From: Escherichia phage SP22
Length of the DNA stretch: 64,000 nucleotides
Sequence record: LC519489.1
Reading direction: 5' to 3' (one strand)
Shown: positions 26,669 to 31,973 of the stretch, piece by piece
How positions within the stretch are numbered: position 1 is the stretch's first letter
Layout: the number at the start of each line of letters is the position of its first letter
Notes under the pieces: generated by a model
The model's input: only the letters and a program-made list of their open reading frames with translations
Databases searched by the model: none
Told to the model about the DNA's origin: nothing
Position numbers and translations under genes: made by a program

Positions 26669-26815
26669 ATTATCTTTGTAGATAAGTTATTAAGCTTACC
26701 TGTGAGTATGCGACCACAAAGGGTGAAATGGTAAATTCTAGATTTAAACCCAACAATGCACATCGCTACAGACCTTAAGCAAGTCTGGGTAGCTTATCTA
26801 CAAAGATAATTTAAT

Positions 26816-26891
26816 GGAAGTGTAGCAGAATGGTGATGCGGCAGACTTTTAATCTGACAGGCGATGGGTTCGAATCCCTCCACTTCTACCA
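26816..26891 (+). tRNA. tRNA-Lys (anticodon TTT)
   Basis: acceptor ggaagtg/cacttct, anticodon loop cttttaa, T-loop ttcgaat, CCA. Confidence 0.65.
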
Positions 26892-26895
26892 ATAT

Positions 26896-26972
26896 GGTTC
26901 AGTCGCAGATAAGGTAATGCAGGGGTTTCATAAGCCCTATGAATGTGGGTTCGATTCCCATCTGAACCTCCA
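26896..26972 (+). tRNA. tRNA with anticodon CAT (elongator Met or Ile-lysidine type)
   Basis: acceptor ggttcag/ctgaacc, anticodon stem ggggt/gccct loop ttcataa, T-loop ttcgatt, CCA. Confidence 0.6.
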
Positions 26973-26973
26973 A

Positions 26974-27049
26974 GCTGGTATAGTTAAGAAGGTTATAACA
27001 CTCCCCTGATAAGGGAACATCGGTGGTTCGATTCCACCTACCAGTACCA
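26974..27049 (+). tRNA. tRNA-Ile (anticodon GAT)
   Basis: acceptor gctggta/taccagt, anticodon loop ctgataa, T-arm ggtgg-ttcgatt-ccacc, CCA. Confidence 0.65.
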
Positions 27050-27064
27050 ATTTCAATAAAGTTG

Positions 27065-27093
27065 TTGACATTGAGATGTGACTACTTTATAGT
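27065..27093 (+). promoter_or_regulatory. sigma70-like promoter (ttgaca 27065-27070, 17 bp, tatagt 27088-27093)
   Basis: consensus hexamers with 17-bp spacer. Confidence 0.55.
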
Positions 27094-27099
27094 AACTGA

Positions 27100-27387
27100 A
27101 AATGATTCAGCATATGTATAATTCAAACACCAATACATGAGCGTTAGACGTAACACAATGTGGGGAAATTTGTTGTACATATTCTGAATAGTTTTCGTTG
27201 CGTAGCGTCTATTTTGCAAATTTAAAATAAATGCAAACGACAATGTTTTTCTGGCAGTAGCTTGATAGGCTAAACACCAGTGAGGTCTTCCAATCCCTCA
27301 TCAAAGAATTTGGCGTACTCGCCCACGGTATGATTAATAAGGTGGGCATCTTTAAGGGCTTTCTAAGAGAGTCTTTAAAGATAATTA
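27100..27387 (+). ncRNA. candidate non-coding transcript downstream of the promoter and upstream of the atypical tRNA-like gene
   Basis: about 290 nt with no ORF of 60 aa or more in any frame, inside the tRNA cluster. Confidence 0.25.
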
Positions 27388-27469
27388 CGGGGCGTATCTC
27401 AGCGGTCTTCTAAACCGCCGTTAACCGAGTAAGTGGAGTATGCGGGTTCGAGTCCTGCCGCCTCGACCA
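27388..27469 (+). tRNA. atypical tRNA-like gene: canonical T-arm and acceptor with CCA, anticodon-like hairpin gcggt-cTTCTaa-accgc (TCT, Arg-type), no canonical D-arm, 23-nt extra region
   Basis: acceptor cggggcg/cgcctcg, T-arm gcggg-ttcgagt-cctgc; only 7 nt between acceptor and hairpin. Confidence 0.4.
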
Positions 27470-27483
27470 ATTTTGGAGAAATC

Positions 27484-27831
27484 ATGAAAACTTGTATTAG
27501 GTGCAAACTTAGCAAGGATGAAAATGATTTCTACATGAAAGATGGTAAGAGAACTCATTCATACTGTAAAAAGTGTGTTAATGAGCAAACCATAGAAAGA
27601 CAAAGAGCACTTAAACTTTCAGCTATTGAGTACAAAGGTGGGGTTTGTCATGATTGTGGTAAAAGGTATCATCCAGCAGTGTATGACTTCCATCATTTGA
27701 ATCCTTCAGAGAAAGATTTTAACATTGGTCATAGAAAAAGTCTGAAGTTCTCTCAAGAACTAAAAGATGAACTTGACAAATGTGTTTTGCTATGTTCAAA
27801 TTGCCATAGGGTAAGACATGCAAAGTATTAG
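27484..27831 (+). CDS. HNH homing endonuclease (paralog of 29214-29627)
   Basis: CxxC...CHDCG...HHLNP...CSNCHRVRH motifs; start set at ATG after SD ggag (track ORF 27433 overlaps the tRNA-like gene). Confidence 0.7.
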   Translation: MKTCIRCKLSKDENDFYMKDGKRTHSYCKKCVNEQTIERQRALKLSAIEYKGGVCHDCGKRYHPAVYDFHHLNPSEKDFNIGHRKSLKFSQELKDELDKCVLLCSNCHRVRHAKY

Positions 27832-27968
27832 TTAGCAGATTGCTTAGACGACCTTATCGGGTCTCCGTGTAAGGAGGTGGTCTGTATCTCATGTTTTCCA
27901 GAACATGTAAATAATCTGAGAAGGGGCTTTACAGTGTTGCGAAAATACGGTAAGCTTCGAATTACAAT

Positions 27969-28051
27969 ATGGGACGATGTTAAGACTCTAAGGCATGAGC
28001 AACGGCCTCCAAAACCGTTTCAAAGGGGTTCAACTCCTCCGTCCCATGCCA
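27969..28051 (+). tRNA. non-canonical tRNA-like element or pseudo-tRNA
   Basis: perfect acceptor atgggac/gtcccat-g-cca and T-loop ttcaact, but anticodon hairpin aacgg-cctccaaaa-ccgtt has a 9-nt loop and there is an about 8-nt insertion before the D-stem. Confidence 0.3.
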
Positions 28052-28064
28052 AAGTCTTATTAGG

Positions 28065-28154
28065 GGTAGGTAGCGGCTAATGGCAGCCAAACAGTCTTGA
28101 AAACTGTTGCCACTGTAGAGATACGGTGAGGGTTCGACTCCTTTACTTACCGCC
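28065..28154 (+). tRNA. tRNA-Ser (anticodon TGA), class II
   Basis: acceptor ggtaggt/acttacc, anticodon stem acagt/actgt loop cttgaaa, long variable arm, T-loop ttcgact. Confidence 0.65.
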
Positions 28155-28422
28155 TAATAAGATTTATACCGTCCATGCTTGCTCGCATTTTCGGTTTATC
28201 CTCGTGTATTGGTTGTACACACTGATAAAGCACCTAGTAGGTGTCACGGAGAAGAGATAATATCAAGCTCTCCAAAGGTTCTAGTCACCGGATTAAACAA
28301 GACTATGCAAAGACCAAATTAGGTCTTTTTAGAGGGCTTCTAAGGTTATTACAGCTTGTTGTGGAACCTTGTTGCTTAGGTTCTTAGAAGTTCTCTAAAA
28401 AGATTTAATGGGAGATTGACAC

Positions 28423-28875
28423 ATGGCACGTAGCAGTTTGACTAAAGATATTCTTGAACCTTTAGTAAAGGATTCAGTATCATTCAGAGAAGTACTTATT
28501 AAGCTTGGGAGAAAACCAGCAGGTGGTTCTCAGTCACATCTAAAGCGTGTTATAGAGAAGTTTGAAATAGACACTTCTCATTTCCTCGGACAAAAGGCTG
28601 GTAAGGTTAAAACTGTACCAAAAAGAAAGCCTGAAGAAATACTAATTCTGCGTGAATCTGGTGAAAGAGCTAGGTCTTCACAACTAAGAAGAGCTTTAAT
28701 AGCCTCTGGTGTCGAATACAAATGCTCTAAATGTGGTCAGTTACCGTATTGGTTGGGTAACCCTCTAACTCTTGATGTTGACCACATTAACGAGAACTGG
28801 TTAGATGATAGAAAAGAGAATCTTCGGTTCTTGTGTCCAAATTGCCACAGTCAATTCTCAAGACATTTGATTTAA
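28423..28875 (+). CDS. HNH homing endonuclease
   Basis: YKCSKCG...DHINENWLDDRKENLRFLCPNCH motif; SD gggag. Confidence 0.65.
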   Translation: MARSSLTKDILEPLVKDSVSFREVLIKLGRKPAGGSQSHLKRVIEKFEIDTSHFLGQKAGKVKTVPKRKPEEILILRESGERARSSQLRRALIASGVEYKCSKCGQLPYWLGNPLTLDVDHINENWLDDRKENLRFLCPNCHSQFSRHLI

Positions 28876-28876
28876 T

Positions 28877-28953
28877 GCACCTATAGCCCAACTGGTAGAG
28901 GCAGCAGACTTAGAATCTGCTCAGTGTGAGTTCGAATCTCTCTAGGTGTACCA
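28877..28953 (+). tRNA. tRNA with anticodon TAG (Leu-type anticodon) but short variable arm
   Basis: acceptor gcaccta/taggtgt-a-cca, anticodon stem gcaga/tctgc loop cttagaa, T-loop ttcgaat. Confidence 0.55.
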
Positions 28954-28960
28954 AATTAAT

Positions 28961-29036
28961 GCAGGTGTAGCAAAATGGTTATGCGGCTGACTCTTAATCA
29001 GTAAGACGATGGGTTCAATTCCCTCCACCTGTACCA
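28961..29036 (+). tRNA. tRNA-Lys (anticodon CTT), paralog of the TTT tRNA
   Basis: acceptor gcaggtg/cacctgt, anticodon loop ctcttaa, T-loop ttcaatt, CCA. Confidence 0.6.
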
Positions 29037-29042
29037 AACATT

Positions 29043-29118
29043 GGGGATGTAGTTTACATGGTTAAAACATAAGTTTTGCAAACTTAAGTACAGGGTTCAA
29101 TTCCCTGCTTCTCCACCA
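29043..29118 (+). tRNA. tRNA-Ala (anticodon TGC)
   Basis: anticodon stem taagt/actta loop tttgcaa, T-arm caggg-ttcaatt-ccctg, CCA. Confidence 0.6.
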
Positions 29119-29124
29119 ATTAGT

Positions 29125-29199
29125 GCATCCATAGTTTAAACGGGAAAATTACAGTCTTCCAAACTGAGGTTGAGGGTTCGATTCCCTCTGGATGCTCCA
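29125..29199 (+). tRNA. tRNA-Gly (anticodon TCC)
   Basis: acceptor gcatcca/tggatgc, anticodon loop cttccaa, T-arm gaggg-ttcgatt-ccctc, CCA. Confidence 0.65.
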
Positions 29200-29213
29200 A
29201 ATTAAGGTGTGAT

Positions 29214-29627
29214 ATGAAAATATGTAGTACTTGCAGAATACCAAAAGATGAAAGCTTATTCCATAAGAATAAGAACAAGAAAGATGGTCTTCAAAGTCAA
29301 TGCAAAGACTGTGCAAGACTTCGTGATGCAAAGAGTTATCAAGCAAATGATAAAAGGAAAGAGGCTATCAAAAGCACTCGTAACTTCAAGAGGGAGTATA
29401 ATAAAACTCTAGCTAGAAGGTACAAAGCTTTATGCAAATGTCATATATGTGGTGAGAAAGAACCAGCTGCACTGGATTTACACCATACAGACCCTTCCCA
29501 GAAAGATTTGAATCCTGCATCACTTTATTCATACTCCACAAAAAGATTAAAAGATGAAATCAGAAAGTGTATCGTCTTGTGTGCTAACTGTCACAGAAAA
29601 GTACACGCTGGTATCATACAAGTTTAA
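29214..29627 (+). CDS. HNH homing endonuclease (paralog of 27484-27831)
   Basis: CSTCR...CKDC...CHICG...HHTDPS...CANCHRKVH. Confidence 0.7.
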   Translation: MKICSTCRIPKDESLFHKNKNKKDGLQSQCKDCARLRDAKSYQANDKRKEAIKSTRNFKREYNKTLARRYKALCKCHICGEKEPAALDLHHTDPSQKDLNPASLYSYSTKRLKDEIRKCIVLCANCHRKVHAGIIQV

Positions 29628-29628
29628 T

Positions 29629-29705
29629 GCTGCTTTCGTATAATTGGCTATTACACATCCCTTGTAAGGATGGAAATGCAGGTTCGAGTCCTGTGAGCAG
29701 CACCA
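29629..29705 (+). tRNA. tRNA-Thr (anticodon TGT)
   Basis: acceptor gctgctt/gagcagc, anticodon stem catcc/ggatg loop cttgtaa, T-loop ttcgagt, CCA. Confidence 0.7.
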
Positions 29706-29801
29706 ATTTAGAGGTCAAGTGAAAGACCGCTTTGAGTCAACTGAAGACCGTAACAAATCCCACGGAGTTGAGTTAGCGGCACAACTTCAGACCTCTTTCA
29801 T
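29706..29801 (+). ncRNA. structured intergenic element with nested inverted repeats between tRNA-Thr and tRNA-Val
   Basis: gaggtc...gacctc, ctgaag...cttcag and ccgt...acgg inverted repeats; contains the gaagaccgt motif. Confidence 0.3.
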
Positions 29802-29876
29802 ACTCGCTTAGTTTATATGGTAAAACATCACCCTTACAAGATGAAGAAAAAGGTTCAAGTCCTTTAGTGAGTACCA
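29802..29876 (+). tRNA. tRNA-Val (anticodon TAC)
   Basis: acceptor actcgct/agtgagt, D-stem gttt/aaac, anticodon loop cttacaa, T-arm aaagg-ttcaagt-ccttt, CCA. Confidence 0.6.
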
Positions 29877-29877
29877 T

Positions 29878-29955
29878 GTTCCAGTATCCCAATTGGCAGA
29901 GGATGCAAGCTCAAACCTTGTACTAGTGACGGTTCGAATCCGTCTTGGAACACCA
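29878..29955 (+). tRNA. tRNA with anticodon CAA (Leu-type anticodon), short variable arm
   Basis: acceptor gttccag/ttggaac, anticodon stem gcaag/cttgt loop ctcaaac, T-arm gacgg-ttcgaat-ccgtc, CCA. Confidence 0.55.
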
Positions 29956-29960
29956 ATTTT

Positions 29961-30036
29961 GCAGGATTAGTTCAAATGGATAGAGCAACAGTCTACGAAG
30001 CTGTTAATAGGGGTTCGAATCCCTTATCCTGCGCCA
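29961..30036 (+). tRNA. tRNA-Arg (anticodon ACG)
   Basis: perfect acceptor gcaggat/atcctgc, D-stem gttc/gagc, anticodon stem acagt/gctgt loop ctacgaa, T-loop ttcgaat, CCA. Confidence 0.75.
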
Positions 30037-30055
30037 ATTTAAAGAGGCTATTTAG

Positions 30056-30613
30056 ATGAGATATTTGAAGTATGCTTCATGGATTTTCTTAGCTTTGTTA
30101 GAACCATTTGCAGCAATCTTAGCAGTTATCTTAGCACCTTTCGTAGTCCCATTCTACAGTGAGAAGAAAGGACACTTACCTTTCGGCTTCAGATGGATGG
30201 AGACATATGACAACCCAATTGATGGTGATAAAGGGCATGTCGAACGATGGGCTAAGATTAGAAAGATTGGCAAGCTTGGTGTCTATATGCAGAGAGTCGG
30301 TTGGCTCTGGAGAAACAAAGCTTATAACTTCTCTTACCATGTGTTAGGAAGAGATGTAAAAGATGTTACTAAGTGGAAAGGCAATATCAACGTAAGTTCT
30401 AACCCTGAAGATAATCAGACAGGTTATCTCCTAATGTGGAACAGCAATGCTTGGGGATTATTCGCTTTTATCCCATCAATTAAAGTCTTTGGTAAACAAT
30501 TTTACTGGAGAATTTATATTGGGTGGAAGCTAAAAAGTGTTGTCCCAGAAGAAAGAGCATTCTCAAGGGAAAGAGTTATGTTGGCATTCTTTATTCATCC
30601 ACTAAGAAAGTAA
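30056..30613 (+). CDS. hypothetical Trp-rich membrane protein encoded inside the tRNA cluster
   Basis: N-terminal hydrophobic segment WIFLALLEPFAAILAVILAPFVVPF. Confidence 0.45.
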   Translation: MRYLKYASWIFLALLEPFAAILAVILAPFVVPFYSEKKGHLPFGFRWMETYDNPIDGDKGHVERWAKIRKIGKLGVYMQRVGWLWRNKAYNFSYHVLGRDVKDVTKWKGNINVSSNPEDNQTGYLLMWNSNAWGLFAFIPSIKVFGKQFYWRIYIGWKLKSVVPEERAFSRERVMLAFFIHPLRK

Positions 30614-30621
30614 AGATTTAA

Positions 30622-30697
30622 AGGGGATTAGTTTACAAGGTTAAAACCTCGGTCTTTGAAATCGAAGAAGTTGGTTCAATTCCAACATCCCCCGCCA
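30622..30697 (+). tRNA. tRNA-Gln (anticodon TTG)
   Basis: anticodon stem tcggt/atcga loop ctttgaa, D-stem gttt/aaac, T-arm gttgg-ttcaatt-ccaac, CCA; A1:C72 unpaired. Confidence 0.6.
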
Positions 30698-30699
30698 AT

Positions 30700-30778
30700 G
30701 CTCCATTACTCCAATTGGCAGAGAGGCCAGACTTAAAATCTGTGTTATGTATCGGTTCGAATCCGATATGGAGTACCA
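30700..30778 (+). tRNA. tRNA with anticodon TAA (Leu-type anticodon), short variable arm
   Basis: acceptor gctccat/atggagt, anticodon loop cttaaaa, T-arm atcgg-ttcgaat-ccgat, CCA. Confidence 0.55.
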
Positions 30779-30783
30779 AATTT

Positions 30784-30859
30784 AGCGGTATAGCATAACT
30801 GGCAATGCAGCAGTCTCTGAAGCTGTCTTATTAAGGTTCAAATCCTTATGCCGCTGCCA
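30784..30859 (+). tRNA. tRNA with anticodon CTG (Gln-type)
   Basis: acceptor agcggta/tgccgct, D-stem gcat/atgc, anticodon loop ctctgaa, T-arm taagg-ttcaaat-cctta, CCA. Confidence 0.55.
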
Positions 30860-30890
30860 CTTCTAAGGGTTCTTACGAGAGTCCTTAAAT

Positions 30891-30966
30891 GTGGCCTTAT
30901 CATAAATGGTAATGACCCATGCTGTGAACATGGTCTATACGGGTTCAAATCCCGTAGGTCACCCCA
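30891..30966 (+). tRNA. tRNA-His (anticodon GTG)
   Basis: acceptor gtggcct/aggtcac, anticodon stem ccatg/catgg loop ctgtgaa, T-loop ttcaaat, CCA. Confidence 0.7.
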
Positions 30967-30971
30967 ATTTA

Positions 30972-31046
30972 TAGTCCAAGTAGCTTATATGGTTAAAGCG
31001 CGTGTCTGAAAAACATGAGAAGAGGGTTCAAATCCCACTGGACTAC
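30972..31046 (+). tRNA. tRNA-Phe (anticodon GAA); 3' CCA not fully encoded
   Basis: acceptor tagtcca/tggacta, anticodon stem cgtgt/acatg loop ctgaaaa, T-loop ttcaaat. Confidence 0.55.
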
Positions 31047-31064
31047 CAATTTCAAAGGTGCTTA

Positions 31065-31799
31065 ATGAAAGAGATGACAGAACAAGGTAAGGAGATTTTT
31101 AATCTCTTAAAAACCGGTAAAGGGTTTTCTAATCCCCTTATTACTGGTGCAGCAGTTCTCGGTGGAACCGTAGCTGCCTCTACATCACTTGTAAGCTCTA
31201 TTAGCTCTGTAACAGACCCTACAATAAAAGATAAGCTTGTTGCTGCTGGACTTACAACAGTCCTGCTTAACAGCTTTACAACGAGTCTGACAAGCACTAC
31301 ATCAACTACCAAAACACTGACAGATTACGGTCAAAAATCTATTGATGAGTTTTCATCACGTATGCAGGTAGCAAAAGGCTATTCTAATGTTATGGGTGCA
31401 GCAGGAGAGCAGGTTGGTTGTACACCATTTAGTGGTATTATGGGTGTTGCTACAGAGTATGGTCAAAAAGCTATTGACACGATTAACAGTGCACTAGATG
31501 GTGTTAATGATGTATTAAGTGACTTACAAGATGCTATTGACAAAGGTCTTGATACTATTTCTGATTTAGCTAACCAAGCTGTTAGTAAGATTAATGAAGG
31601 TATTTCGAAGATTACAGCTTATGCAGATGAAGTTGTGCAGATGATTGAAGAAGAAGCTGCTCTTATTGCAGAGTACCTTAAAACGAATATCAATGGGTTC
31701 TTAGCAGGTATCTTACCAGACTGGTTTGATGATGCTTGTAAAACTGGTGTAATTGATACTATTGCAACACCAGAAATGAAGAACGCATTACAGAAATAA
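31065..31799 (+). CDS. hypothetical Ser/Thr/Ala-rich protein (start set at internal ATG after the tRNA; track ORF 31002 overlaps tRNA-Phe)
   Basis: ORF track with start adjusted. Confidence 0.45.
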   Translation: MKEMTEQGKEIFNLLKTGKGFSNPLITGAAVLGGTVAASTSLVSSISSVTDPTIKDKLVAAGLTTVLLNSFTTSLTSTTSTTKTLTDYGQKSIDEFSSRMQVAKGYSNVMGAAGEQVGCTPFSGIMGVATEYGQKAIDTINSALDGVNDVLSDLQDAIDKGLDTISDLANQAVSKINEGISKITAYADEVVQMIEEEAALIAEYLKTNINGFLAGILPDWFDDACKTGVIDTIATPEMKNALQK

Positions 31800-31800
31800 T

Positions 31801-31893
31801 GGAAGATTAACCCTAAAAGGTAAGGGAGCAGTTTGCTAAACTGCCAGTAGCTGAGAAATCGGTGTACCAGTTCAAGTCTGGTATCTTCCTCCA
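31801..31893 (+). tRNA. tRNA-Ser (anticodon GCT), class II
   Basis: perfect acceptor ggaagat/atcttcc, anticodon stem gcagt/actgc loop ttgctaa, long variable arm, T-arm accag-ttcaagt-ctggt, CCA. Confidence 0.75.
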
Positions 31894-31897
31894 ATTT

Positions 31898-31973
31898 GAA
31901 TCCGTGACAGAAATGGTTATGTGCCTGTCTGCAAAACAGGTTTATAAGGGTTCGAGTCCCTTCGGATTCTCCA
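31898..31973 (+). tRNA. tRNA-Cys (anticodon GCA)
   Basis: perfect acceptor gaatccg/cggattc, anticodon stem cctgt/acagg loop ctgcaaa, T-arm aaggg-ttcgagt-ccctt, CCA. Confidence 0.75.

Follow-up and report, generated by a model that had tools for sequence, protein, structure and literature searches.

Candidate tRNA-Arg(UCU) and tRNA-Trp(CCA) genes with non-standard cores in the Felix O1-like Escherichia phage SP22

Two tRNA-like elements at positions 27388-27469 (element 1) and 27969-28051 (element 2) of Escherichia phage SP22 are probably functional elongator tRNAs that are encoded by the phage and have non-standard cores; they are not pseudogenes. The analysed window comprised 64,000 nt of this Felix O1-like phage (LC519489.1). 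The assignment was based on conservation, covariation, allelic replacement, anticodon restriction and codon demand. A sequence-only reading had described two non-canonical tRNA-like genes; both were present at these coordinates with all of the structural features listed for them. ARAGORN called 25 other tRNAs in the window and left elements 1 and 2 uncalled. The only gaps among these 25 were Trp and a reader of AGA, and elements 1 and 2 complete the tRNA set for the 20 amino acids. The possibility had been raised that standard predictors would recover a canonical cloverleaf overlooked by eye. ARAGORN found none, and with relaxed thresholds, in tmRNA mode or with introns allowed it called neither element and returned implausible models only. 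The ARAGORN tmRNA search of the window yielded no tmRNA. A 96-nt tRNA-Arg reported by ARAGORN in L033 was rejected as a canonical fold, its mismatched acceptor stem being borrowed from flanking sequence. MFE z-scores were unremarkable (0.04 and -1.39 for elements 1 and 2, respectively). The features of both elements are far beyond chance, as seen from compensatory changes across many phages and from a control pattern whose spacer differed by one position, which gave 0 matches in the viral collection.

Element 1 was assigned as a non-canonical tRNA-Arg(UCU) gene of 82 nt on the plus strand, including the encoded CCA, based on the Rfam tRNA score, a shared genomic slot and covariation within its family. 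The Rfam tRNA model RF00005 matched it with 31.7 bits, narrowly above the gathering score of 29, and in the alignment the D-arm was deleted and 20 nt were inserted. The acceptor stem CGGGGCG/CGCCTCG comprised 7 bp including G3.U70, formed by 27388-27394 and 27459-27465, and was followed by the discriminator A73 (27466) and the CCA end (27467-27469). The connector UAUCUCA (27395-27401) held U8-A9 and then CUC (27398-27400), the 5' strand of a D-stem that appears to be relocated. The anticodon arm (27402-27418) was the hairpin GCGGT-CTTCTAA-ACCGC, with a 5-bp stem (27402-27406/27414-27418), a 7-nt loop CUUCUAA (27407-27413) with U33 and a purine at position 37, and the anticodon UCU (27409-27411; TCT in the DNA). 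The 23-nt insert (27419-27441) consisted of a linker (27419-27426), the putative D-stem 3' strand GAG (27427-27429), the motif UAAGUGGA (27430-27437) and GUAU. It led into the T-arm GCGGG-TTCGAGT-CCTGC (27442-27458; stem 27442-27446/27454-27458), whose loop UUCGAGU conformed to the T-loop consensus UUCRANY. With 7 nt (TATCTCA) between the acceptor and anticodon stems in the D-arm position, and 23 nt ahead of the T-arm, element 1 formed no local D-arm hairpin between positions 9 and 26. The T-arm, acceptor stem, CCA, TCT hairpin, 7-nt gap and 23-nt segment noticed in the sequence-only reading were thus all confirmed.

Covariation in the element 1 family was evaluated with 39 distinct sequences for the helices. 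The acceptor, anticodon and T helices were paired in 99.0% of cells, compared with 70.8% in shuffles. Compensatory changes occurred in 15 of 20 pairs and 207 cells (0 of 500 shuffles), and pairing collapsed in slid registers. All seven acceptor pairs had double-sided compensatory changes, with 98.2% of cells paired. The anticodon stem was 100% paired with 5/5 pairs compensatory and its loop was invariant, and the T-stem was 99% paired with 3/5 pairs compensatory. The discriminator, compared in 41 sequences, was G in 24, A in 13, U in 3 and C in 1. In the type-1 family the connector was invariant and the 23-nt insert nearly so.

Judging by covariation, the D-stem of element 1 is relocated and not lost, as its connector pairs with the 23-nt insert. 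In the wider family of 74 distinct sequences, examined under one fixed rule, the connector bases covaried with the three nucleotides before the UAAYUGGA motif and were paired in 74/74, 74/74 and 60/74 sequences. The observed count was reached by 0 of 2000 shuffles, and slid registers gave 0-1 fully paired sequences. Four combinations were fully complementary (CTC/GAG, CGG/CCG, CAC/GTG and CAG/CTG) and four further combinations kept two covarying pairs. The stem comprised 3 bp only, and in 14 of the 74 sequences the third pair was mismatched unless a G was bulged. Every connector listed for the family started with UA. Because the connector CUC pairs with the GAG located 5' of UAAYUGGA, the anticodon arm would be nested inside the D-stem. 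The UAAYUGGA motif itself would match A14 A15 N U G18 G19 A20 of the D-loop in the canonical sister tRNA-Arg. Two other foldings of the insert were rejected. A small hairpin within it, predicted by RNAalifold and RNAfold, showed one-sided changes only, competed with the covarying D-stem for G40 and could not form in other subtypes. Pairing of the connector with the 3' GAGUAU of the insert was unsupported.

The slot of element 1, with the same flanks, held a tRNA-Arg in SUT_S820, SFPB, Mijalis, Sf16 and pEC-M719. In four of these five phages the anticodon was TCT according to ARAGORN or the record annotation. Comparison with tRNA-Arg(TCT) genes of related phages, proposed as a check in the sequence-only reading, thus revealed a canonical UCU allele in the same slot of sister phages. 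The canonical tRNA-Arg(UCU) of Salmonella phage SUT_S820 and Citrobacter phage Mijalis shared the slot, flanks, strand, loop CUUCUAA, 7-bp acceptor stem and CCA with element 1, and its T-arm was similar; presumably both do the same AGA-decoding job. They differ in the order of their parts. The canonical tRNA-Arg runs from the D 5' strand through the D-loop, D 3' strand, N26 and anticodon arm to a 5-nt variable loop, whereas in element 1 the putative D 5' strand is followed by N, the anticodon arm, the linker, the D 3' strand and the D-loop-like motif, with no separate variable loop. About half of the related phages retained the canonical allele, and the rearranged form is therefore not required. 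An ARAGORN-called Arg(tct) was absent from 63 of 68 loci with the element 1 type; among these 63 were the window and ten further loci that had 22-26 tRNAs. At all 68 loci, the element was co-oriented with all neighbouring tRNA genes. AGA accounted for 43.6% of the arginine codons in the window's 43 long ORFs, and the Felix O1 genome paper had reported AGA as over-represented with no tRNA found for it (PMC3185647).

The anticodons of the family were confined to arginine. With the anticodon arm left free, the type-1 pattern retrieved 62 copies with TCT and one with CCT. A scan for the architecture in 3.76 Mb, also with a free anticodon, detected TCT 61 times, CCT twice, ACG once and no others; the patterns used to retrieve most family members had a fixed UCU loop, which biases the ratio of 61:2:1 to UCU and leaves the absence of non-arginine anticodons unaffected. 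The same architecture was present in unrelated phages (phi92, PBECO4, Mydo and jumbo phages) with completely different acceptor stems. When 185,579 bacterial and archaeal species were searched with one genome per species, the element 1 family had two matches in total, and none was detected in 5,426 E. coli genomes. A host origin of element 1 was rejected on its absence from these E. coli genomes. The class is phage-restricted, widespread and arginine-specific.

Element 1 would act as a tRNA-Arg reading AGA. In the proposed fold, U8-A9 would be followed by CUC as the 5' strand of the D-stem, directly by the anticodon arm and then by the linker and the GAG 3' strand. The D-loop-like UAAYUGGA motif would take the usual place of the variable loop, directly before the T-arm. 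The D-stem and anticodon stem could still stack into a long arm and the relocated G18-G19-like bases would dock on the T-loop, while the A20-like base together with C35 would provide the usual identity elements for arginyl-tRNA synthetase. RNase P would release both elements from cluster transcripts and host enzymes would charge them. From the sequence evidence, we infer transcription, processing, aminoacylation and ribosomal use of both elements as well as their tertiary contacts.

Element 2 was assigned as a non-canonical tRNA-Trp(CCA) gene of 83 nt on the plus strand, including the encoded CCA, based on covariation and its presence in about 235 Ounavirinae records; in 0 of 40 listed records was it annotated as a tRNA. 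It had a perfect acceptor stem ATGGGAC/GTCCCAT, G73, CCA and the T-loop TTCAACT. The connector GAUGUUAAGA (27976-27985) was extended by 8 nt, to 10 nt from the 2 nt of canonical tRNAs. This 10-nt connector (GATGTTAAGA in the DNA) preceded the 3-bp D-stem CTC/GAG and was conserved even in Pectobacterium phage Arno18, which was 76% identical overall. The D-arm (27986-27999) consisted of the stem CUC/GAG (27986-27988/27997-27999) and the 8-nt loop UAAGGCAU; the middle pair changed from U-A to A-U in three of eight sequences. The anticodon arm (28002-28018) had its stem at 28002-28006/28014-28018 and the anticodon CCA at 28009-28011. Its hairpin can be read with a 5-bp stem and a 9-nt loop or with a 7-nt loop CTCCAAA closed by a conserved C31.A39 mismatch. 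The acceptor stem, T-loop and roughly 8 extra nucleotides of the sequence-only reading were retained; its 9-nt loop was replaced by the better description as a normal CUCCAAA loop closed by C31.A39. The canonical tRNA-Trp of phiEa104 had the same mismatch and loop in a hand reading of the aligned sequence.

Six compensatory pairs were found in eight distinct sequences of element 2. For four of five measures the value observed was matched by no shuffle, and for the fifth by 4 of 500. All four helices were present: the acceptor stem was 100% paired, and the anticodon stem and T-stem had four and one compensatory pairs, respectively. The T-stem contained an A49.C65 mismatch in all copies and a further mismatch in BPS15Q2. 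No Rfam model reached its threshold on element 2, the best match being tRNA-Sec with 23 bits and E = 0.13. A loose element 2 pattern retrieved mostly chance matches and, after filtering, only the Ounavirinae copies. The identity set of E. coli TrpRS comprises the CCA anticodon, G73 and A1-U72. The CCA anticodon and G73 were conserved in 8/8 variants, with A-U or G.U as pair 1-72. Judged by these bases, element 2 carries the TrpRS identity set and is probably a tRNA-Trp(CCA) of the Felix O1 group.

The elements had been noted beside homing endonuclease genes, and an HNH ORF does lie between them. The gene at 27484-27831 on the plus strand encoded a free-standing HNH homing endonuclease (PHROG 2255, E = 1e-39); the Pfam HNH model matched its product with 16.7 bits, under the cutoff. 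Two more HNH genes were located at 28423-28875 and 29214-29627. The gene at 27484-27831 was precisely absent in BPS15Q2 and lay beside the canonical tRNA-Arg in Sf16, and the region spanning elements 1 and 2 was a mosaic of optional HNH insertions. The HNH gene between the elements is an independent, optional mobile insertion.

Just upstream of element 1, the window encodes a putative tmRNA-like RNA in which a tag template is joined by an arm complementary in antisense to the tmRNA of the host. It extended over 27187-27387 on the plus strand and comprised the antisense arm (about 27187-27222), the tag frame ANDNVFLAVA with two stops (27233-27268), a pseudoknot (27281-27313) and hairpins. The tag reading frame, 120 nt upstream of element 1 on the same strand, was under purifying selection. 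A sigma-70-type promoter at 27065-27093 on the plus strand (TTGACA, 17 nt, TATAGT; 11/12 consensus matches) was conserved in relatives and would drive the tmRNA-like RNA and element 1 as one transcript. The tag module was rejected as host ssrA; the 291 of 5,426 E. coli genomes that had it carried it on prophages and plasmids. When a tRNA-like domain of the tag RNA was sought, matches were as frequent as expected by chance, and the candidate in Vi01 had U3.G70. A literature search for phage RNA antisense to tmRNA found none. Y-RNA families were absent among the listed Rfam matches, both in the window at the gathering score and at 27050-28900 with E up to 10. A Ro60/Y-RNA (YrlA) system was likewise rejected, as the neighbouring DUF2828/DUF7788 protein had no Pfam TROVE match and no relative with a solved structure.

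Non-canonical tRNAs, endonuclease-damaged pseudogenes and regulatory RNAs had been offered as readings of the two elements. The first fits best, except for the lack of a D-arm in element 1, and regulatory RNAs are disfavoured. Decaying pseudogenes, damaged by indels during repair after cleavage by the adjacent HNH enzyme, are scarcely credible. The two elements flank an HNH gene in a region of optional HNH insertions, tools have reported pseudo-tRNAs in Felix O1-like phages (PMC3185647, PMC4392139) and element 2 of BPS15Q2 has its extra T-stem mismatch, all of which would fit decay. However, every helix was maintained by compensatory substitutions, and the supposed damage, namely the invariant connector and nearly invariant 23-nt insert, was the most conserved part. 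The recurrence of the architecture in unrelated phages with different acceptor stems and the independent assortment of HNH presence and tRNA allele also contradict damage by the neighbouring gene. Decay is effectively refuted by the covariation, and the divergent stems exclude a single recent horizontal transfer.

Alternatively, a phage tmRNA might be split, with element 1 as its tRNA-like domain; element 1 would then receive alanine by virtue of G3.U70 and A73 and act in trans-translation with the upstream ANDNVFLAVA RNA. The Rfam tmRNA model matched 27388-27469 (22 bits, E = 1.7e-6 in a 1.9-kb search) and 27197-27386, the window copy resembles a tmRNA domain in having G3.U70, A73, CCA and no D hairpin, and the selected tag frame lies close upstream on the same strand. 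Against this, both RF00023 scores were far under the gathering score of 47, G3.U70 occurred in only 6 of 39 family members with otherwise unconstrained acceptor stems, and the conserved arginine anticodon loop is absent from tmRNA domains. The two modules were also separable. In phi92, PBECO4, Mydo and Kae01, element 1 was present and no tag module was detected; conversely, Vi01, HK633 and Pollock had the tag module and lacked element 1. In phiEa104 the tag module preceded an ordinary tRNA-Leu, and in SUT_S820 the canonical tRNA-Arg. The tag frame of the window was located wholly upstream of element 1. Element 1 was rejected as a tmRNA, and a split tmRNA is very improbable. Somewhat less remote, though still unlikely, are tRNA-shaped RNAs outside decoding, serving as decoys for host tRNA nucleases or modification enzymes or as processing punctuation for RNase P or RNase Z. 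Element 1 is immediately preceded by a structured non-coding RNA whose transcription the promoter at 27065-27093 would drive, so that RNase P cleavage at 27388 would define the 3' end of that RNA. Rejection of both elements by ARAGORN agrees with such a role, and a decoy of an arginine-tRNA-specific nuclease would also conserve the anticodon loop. A processing signal, however, needs no anticodon loop, yet the loop was invariant and the anticodons, of three kinds, were all for arginine. The acceptor end, discriminator and CCA were retained, AGA demand was high, and element 1 replaced the canonical tRNA-Arg(UCU), the two being mutually exclusive in 63/68 loci. Many family members also resided in clusters without an upstream non-coding RNA.

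As elongator tRNAs, the elements can be compared with known systems. Mitochondrial tRNA-Ser(AGY/AGN) without a D-arm, as in the bovine and human forms and in Ascaris suum tRNA-Ser(UCU), is functional despite a non-cloverleaf core (PMC7609411). Like element 1, it has a short connector in place of the D hairpin and a UCU/GCU anticodon for AGN-type codons. It is organellar, specific for serine, served by co-evolved synthetases, EF-Tu and ribosomes and devoid of a relocated D-stem or D-loop motif, whereas the phage class has a full T-arm and a 19-24-nt insert, is arginine-specific and must use unmodified bacterial machinery. The engineered D-arm-less mini HisT was accepted by E. coli HisRS, EF-Tu and ribosome (PMC11551756, Nucleic Acids Res 2024), which makes function of element 1 mechanistically plausible. 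A pnp mutation was required to stabilise this artificial tRNA, and all known bacterial tRNAs were described as canonical in that work (PMC11551756). In contrast, the phage class is natural and widespread, and would retain elements of the D-stem and D-loop, arranged in a new topology. Class II tRNAs and allo-tRNAs (8/4 or 9/3 acceptor/T), which standard predictors often overlook or score wrongly (PMC7609411), share the extra sequence between anticodon arm and T-arm. They have a normal D hairpin and a self-contained hairpin as extra arm, whereas the element 1 insert appears to pair back to the 5' connector. The tRNA-like domain of tmRNA (RF00023) resembles element 1 in its acceptor stem, T-arm, CCA and missing D hairpin, as does the 'TLD only' molecule of mycobacteriophage DS6A (PMC4131195). 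Element 1 differs by its conserved anticodon arm with arginine anticodons, its unconserved G3.U70 and its 22 bits against the required 47. A literature search for D-arm-less phage tRNA-Arg found none. Element 1 may represent the first natural class of non-cloverleaf elongator tRNAs working on ordinary bacterial ribosomes, a proposition that we would believe about as readily as doubt. The class would be phage-only and arginine-specific, with a nested anticodon arm, A14/G18/G19/A20 in the variable-loop position and charging by ArgRS via C35 and the relocated A20. Its core was maybe selected because it evades the tRNA turnover of the host, or host or competitor factors directed against arginine tRNAs, of which colicin-D-type tRNases are an example.

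The annotation of Felix O1-type phages is corrected in that they encode a predicted AGA reader and a predicted Trp tRNA, a class that standard pipelines systematically miss. The AGA reader would answer the puzzle of the Felix O1 genome paper. The confinement of the anticodons to arginine hints that arginine tRNAs in particular come under selection in infected cells. The combination of a tmRNA-type tag template with an anti-tmRNA arm in one phage RNA is undescribed and suggests that phages tamper with ribosome rescue. If the tRNA assignment is true, Felix O1, phi92 and related coliphages would offer a system in which ArgRS, EF-Tu, RNase P, modification enzymes and the ribosome meet a new tRNA topology, together with a ready scaffold for orthogonal tRNA engineering. 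If such a natural and widespread tRNA works in E. coli and Salmonella despite its rewired core, the cloverleaf-only view of bacterial translation would be overturned.

The window was assigned to a Felix O1-like myovirus (Felixounavirus), with Escherichia phage KEP2 as the best match (98.8% over the region). ARAGORN called 25 tRNAs in a co-oriented cluster at 25634-31973, representing 18 amino acids plus three arginine-box or isoacceptor duplicates. Neither a tryptophan tRNA nor a reader of AGA/AGG was among these 25. Two further tRNA-like genes lay within the cluster and on its strand: element 1 (27388-27469, +), with an Arg(UCU) anticodon, and element 2 (27969-28051, +), with a Trp(CCA) anticodon. 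ARAGORN called neither of them on the window with default or relaxed settings, which agreed with the sequence-only reading of both as noncanonical. Against the Rfam tRNA model, element 1 reached 31.7 bits (threshold 29), fitted by a D-arm deletion and a 20-nt insertion. Element 2 was below every Rfam threshold. Directly upstream of the cluster, a 471-aa protein (23948-25363, +) carried DUF2828 and DUF7788 domains and a vWA-like DxSxS motif. It matched the PHROGs family 'RNA-binding protein' (phrog_850, E = 5e-184); a TROVE domain was not detected in it and a relative with a solved structure was not found.

Element 1 comprised a 7-bp acceptor stem, A73, an encoded CCA, a consensus T-arm and an anticodon arm with a 5-bp stem and the loop CUUCUAA. 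Only 7 nt (UAUCUCA) separated the acceptor stem from the anticodon stem, and a 23-nt stretch led from the anticodon stem to the T-arm; the acceptor stem, CCA, T-arm, anticodon hairpin and both spacings had been noted earlier and were confirmed. The public record of VpaE1_ev78 labels the element as an unnamed 'tRNA'. Comparison with homologous tRNA-Arg(TCT) genes placed a canonical gene in the same slot of related phages. In SUT_S820, SFPB, Mijalis, Sf16 and pEC-M719, the DNA was identical to the window up to a hairpin ending ...CTTTAAAGA, and a canonical tRNA-Arg(tct) of 77 nt with an identical anticodon loop stood exactly where the window has element 1. The normal tRNA-Arg(UCU) has thus been replaced by element 1 as an allelic xenologue. 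Its allele was contiguous with the upstream tmRNA-like module in at least 115 phage records.

As described earlier, an HNH endonuclease ORF (27484-27831; PHROG 2255, E = 1e-39) was flanked by the two elements, and two further HNH genes started downstream at 28423 and 29214. The ORF was precisely missing in BPS15Q2, where both elements were kept. In Sf16 the same HNH gene adjoined the canonical tRNA-Arg, and in VpaE1_ev78 another tRNA-Trp allele was followed by yet another HNH gene. The HNH genes are free-standing insertions in intergenic spacers and bystanders to the tRNA shapes, and the endonuclease origin proposed for these shapes was not upheld. Ahead of the second HNH gene, a long and nearly perfect inverted repeat (28315-28414, +) gave spurious Rfam matches to plant microRNA precursors (MIR473, E = 0.003) and may form a hairpin with a regulatory or terminator role.

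BLAST retrieved homologues of element 1 with 83-90% identity from the unrelated phages phi92, PBECO4 and other jumbo phages, Proteus phage Mydo and Klebsiella phage KpS8. They were unannotated and located inside tRNA clusters or solitary. Pattern scans of IMG/VR yielded at least 55 loci and 41 distinct sequences of element 1's own family (type-1), and a control pattern whose spacer was wrong by one position had no match in the viral scan. The type-1 pattern was present in only two MAG contigs when 185,579 species of bacteria and archaea were scanned with one genome per species, and a BLAST search of 5,426 complete E. coli genomes found no element 1. The family appears from these scans to be widespread and phage-only. 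The element was co-oriented with all neighbouring tRNA genes in 68/68 loci. An ARAGORN-called tRNA-Arg(tct) was absent at 63 of these, including the window and ten more loci with 22-26 tRNAs. Type-1 acceptor stems were wholly unlike one another, each being complementary to its own 3' strand. Across 39 sequences, the helices held standard pairs in 99.0% of cells, compared with 70.8% in shuffles, and double-sided changes occurred at 15 of 20 pairs (207 cells). None of 500 shuffles matched any measure and slid registers collapsed.

Within type-1, the 7-nt connector between the acceptor and anticodon stems was invariant and the 23-nt insert ahead of the T-arm nearly so; both were hence uninformative on folding. 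A second noncanonical tRNA-Arg(UCU), on contig L071, led to a new scan anchored on the motif UAAUUGGAU, which returned 34 more distinct genes; these shared the architecture but differed in connector and insert. One pairing rule was fixed for 74 distinct sequences, setting the three connector bases that precede its last base against the three directly 5' of UAAYUGGA. Positions 1 and 2 were paired in 74/74 and all three in 60/74. Four combinations were fully complementary (CTC/GAG, CGG/CCG, CAC/GTG and CAG/CTG) and four others retained two covarying pairs. The observed count was equalled by 0 of 2000 shuffles, and slid registers gave 0-1 fully paired sequences. Along the RNA, the acceptor 5' strand is thus followed by U8-A9-N, the D-stem 5' strand, N, the anticodon arm, a linker, the D-stem 3' strand and UAAYUGGA, and then by a few bases, the T-arm and the acceptor 3' strand. 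In element 1, the D-stem is formed by CUC (27398-27400) and GAG (27427-27429), and the motif occupies 27430-27437. By this covariation, the core of element 1 is rearranged rather than truncated. Of the earlier suggestion of a D-arm-lacking tRNA, the noncanonical tRNA stood, but a D-stem is present and relocated between connector and insert. A 3-bp hairpin inside the insert, proposed by RNAalifold, was backed only by C-to-U changes opposite G; it was excluded, as G40 is taken by the D-stem and other subtypes are unable to form it.

UAAYUGGA matched the D-loops of canonical sisters (AACUGGACA and AAACGGAUA) at A14, A15, G18, G19 and A20, and would map onto these D-loop positions. All connectors began with UA. 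Residues able to form the U8-A14 pair and to bring G18/G19 against the T-loop would thus be in place. ArgRS uses A20 together with C35, and the motif of element 1 would supply this A20. When the anticodon arm of the type-1 pattern was left free, 62 copies carried UCU and one CCU. A scan for the architecture in 3.76 Mb of collected sequence, likewise with a free anticodon, gave UCU 61, CCU 2 and ACG 1, all arginine and all with C35; locus collection inflates the UCU count, and the lack of non-arginine anticodons is unaffected.

Element 2 showed a perfect acceptor stem, G73, CCA and a T-arm. Ten nt rather than two preceded its 3-bp D-stem, corresponding to the perfect acceptor and about 8 extra nt noted earlier. 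The 9-nt anticodon loop of the earlier description fits a 5-bp stem, but is equivalent to the loop CUCCAAA above a C.A mismatch. Erwinia phage phiEa104 also has C31.A39 in its canonical tRNA-Trp, as read by hand. The mismatch belongs to the lineage and does not reflect damage. The identity set of E. coli TrpRS consists of the CCA anticodon, G73 and A1-U72, all of which were found in element 2. The element was present in about 235 Ounavirinae records, with a tRNA annotation in 0/40 of the records listed, and was not found outside Ounavirinae with a structural filter on IMG/VR. Eight distinct variants, including that of Pectobacterium phage Arno18 (76% identity), contained six compensatory pairs: four in the anticodon stem including 26-44, one in the T-stem and one at the middle pair of the D-stem. 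Shuffles did not match the observation on four of five measures and did so in 4/500 on the fifth; slid registers had no compensatory change. The extra GAUGUUAAGA and the anticodon loop were conserved. Element 2 is read as an Ounavirinae tRNA-Trp with an extended connector. A weak promoter-like pair upstream (TTTACA 27928-27933, 17 nt, TAAGCT 27951-27956) was seen by eye, below the scanner threshold; the VpaE1_ev78 counterpart of the upstream hexamer is TTGACA. The element-2 slot of VpaE1_ev78 (L001, 2336-2406) held an unrelated tRNA-Trp of 71 nt with the anticodon at position 30, and so a shortened D region, followed by the extra HNH-like ORF (2421-2825). The Trp slot is therefore polymorphic, as is the Arg slot.

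A structured non-coding region (+) extended between a promoter (27065-27093) and element 1. It held a tmRNA-like RNA (27187-27387) with a tag frame at 27233-27268 (GCA AAC GAC AAT GTT TTT CTG GCA GTA GCT TGA TAG), encoding ANDNVFLAVA and two stops. Homologues with synonymous third-position changes occurred in Vi01-like, lambdoid (HK633, late leader), N4-like (Pollock) and Erwinia phages and in phage-plasmids (L008 ~1160-1330, L009 ~1150-1340, L010 ~1150-1430, L011 1197-1395, L012 ~1200-1330). A viral scan for the tag module gave 81 loci and 16 tags, always of 10 codons and fitting A-N-[D/E]-x-x-hydrophobic-[L/M]-x-x-A. A covarying pseudoknot followed the stop codons (27281-27313); as read from the sequences, one stem is TGAGG/CCTCA, CAAGG/CCTTG, TAGGG/CCCTA or CGAGG/CCTCG and the other CCAA/TTGG, CCAG/CTGG or CCGA/TCGG. 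No convincing tRNA-like domain was found in the five distant homologues scanned (HK633, Vi01, Pollock, phiEa104 and a phage-plasmid). In Vi01 (L009, 1598-1625), a T-arm-like hairpin and AAACGGC-TCCA, conceivably left over from such a domain, lay ~390 nt downstream of the tag frame; the sole complementary upstream 7-mer would give U3.G70, and chance suffices to find one. In phiEa104 (L011, 985-1153), a T-arm and the acceptor stem GGGTGAT...ATCACTC, then GCCA, spanned 139 nt just upstream of the module, uncalled by ARAGORN; this may be a noncanonical or interrupted tRNA.

The segment 5' of the phage resume codon matched, with gaps, the reverse complement of about nt 68-108 of E. coli ssrA. This part of ssrA takes in the PK1 3' side, the resume-selector region and the resume codon together with the first five or six codons. 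In 6/7 copies, 0-2 of 500 shuffles attained the alignment score. Predicted duplexes of this arm with ssrA had -26 to -44 kcal/mol, shuffled arms -12 to -23, and the arm with its own tag region -13 to -19 kcal/mol. The median z-score over 38 distinct arms was -6.4 (predicted duplexes -26 to -50 kcal/mol), with an 8-nt core fixed by the search pattern. This suggests, as a hypothesis only, that the RNA docks on host tmRNA and there either blocks the tag template of the host or presents that of the phage on the host tRNA-like domain. A tmRNA-like RNA with an antisense arm was not described in the literature searched. Between promoter and arm, an optional insertion of ~95 nt (27100-27197) forms a long imperfect hairpin with a weak Rfam 'tmRNA_permuted' match (22 bits). 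The window shares it with Felix O1 and BPS15Q2, and it is cleanly missing from VpaE1_ev78 and several records (two-piece matches). At the 3' end of the RNA, the hairpin just 5' of element 1 (27348-27385) was swapped in Felix O1 (L002, 1798-1865) for a longer one of other sequence (AACATTCTAAAGGGTA...TACCCTTTAAAATGTT), with structure kept and sequence not. The ARAGORN 'tmRNA*' in Mijalis (L013, 1916-2664) was not credible: its 749 nt span three ordinary tRNA genes and it rests solely on the ANDNVFLAVA tag. This model probably explains the reported 'ssrA' of Moogle and Felix O1. An exhaustive survey of RefSeq viruses had ssrA only in mycobacteriophages within its set and also names Bacillus phage G and DS6A (PMC4131195).

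The tag frame upstream, the Rfam tmRNA match and the G3.U70 and A73 of the window copy would suit element 1 as the tRNA-like half of a split tmRNA. However, this explanation fails on G3.U70 being present in only 6/39 members, on the conserved anticodon loop and on the independent occurrence of element 1 and the tag module. Covariation excludes that the two elements are tRNA pseudogenes, and with it the endonuclease-damaged pseudogenes considered earlier. The tRNA-like regulatory RNA of the sequence-only reading is possible, but a decoy or processing-signal role leaves the arginine-anticodon restriction and the replacement of a canonical gene unexplained.

AGA accounted for 43.6% of arginine codons in the 43 long ORFs of the window, and the Felix O1 genome paper reported AGA as over-used with no tRNA found for it (PMC3185647). 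In E. coli, HisRS, EF-Tu and the ribosome all accept an engineered tRNA that has no D-arm (PMC11551756). Taken together, context, demand, arginine restriction and allelic replacement make an AGA-decoding tRNA-Arg of the phage the best explanation of element 1. Phage examples were mentioned neither in a review of noncanonical tRNAs (PMC7609411) nor in the 2024 paper (PMC11551756), and no published description of an element-1-type phage tRNA was found in the literature searched. Two rearranged arginine tRNAs per contig were observed on L071 (12998-13080 and 13332-13429) and L362, each with CCU and UCU, and on L066 with UCU and ACG. Some phages thus hold several arginine isoacceptors in the noncanonical format.
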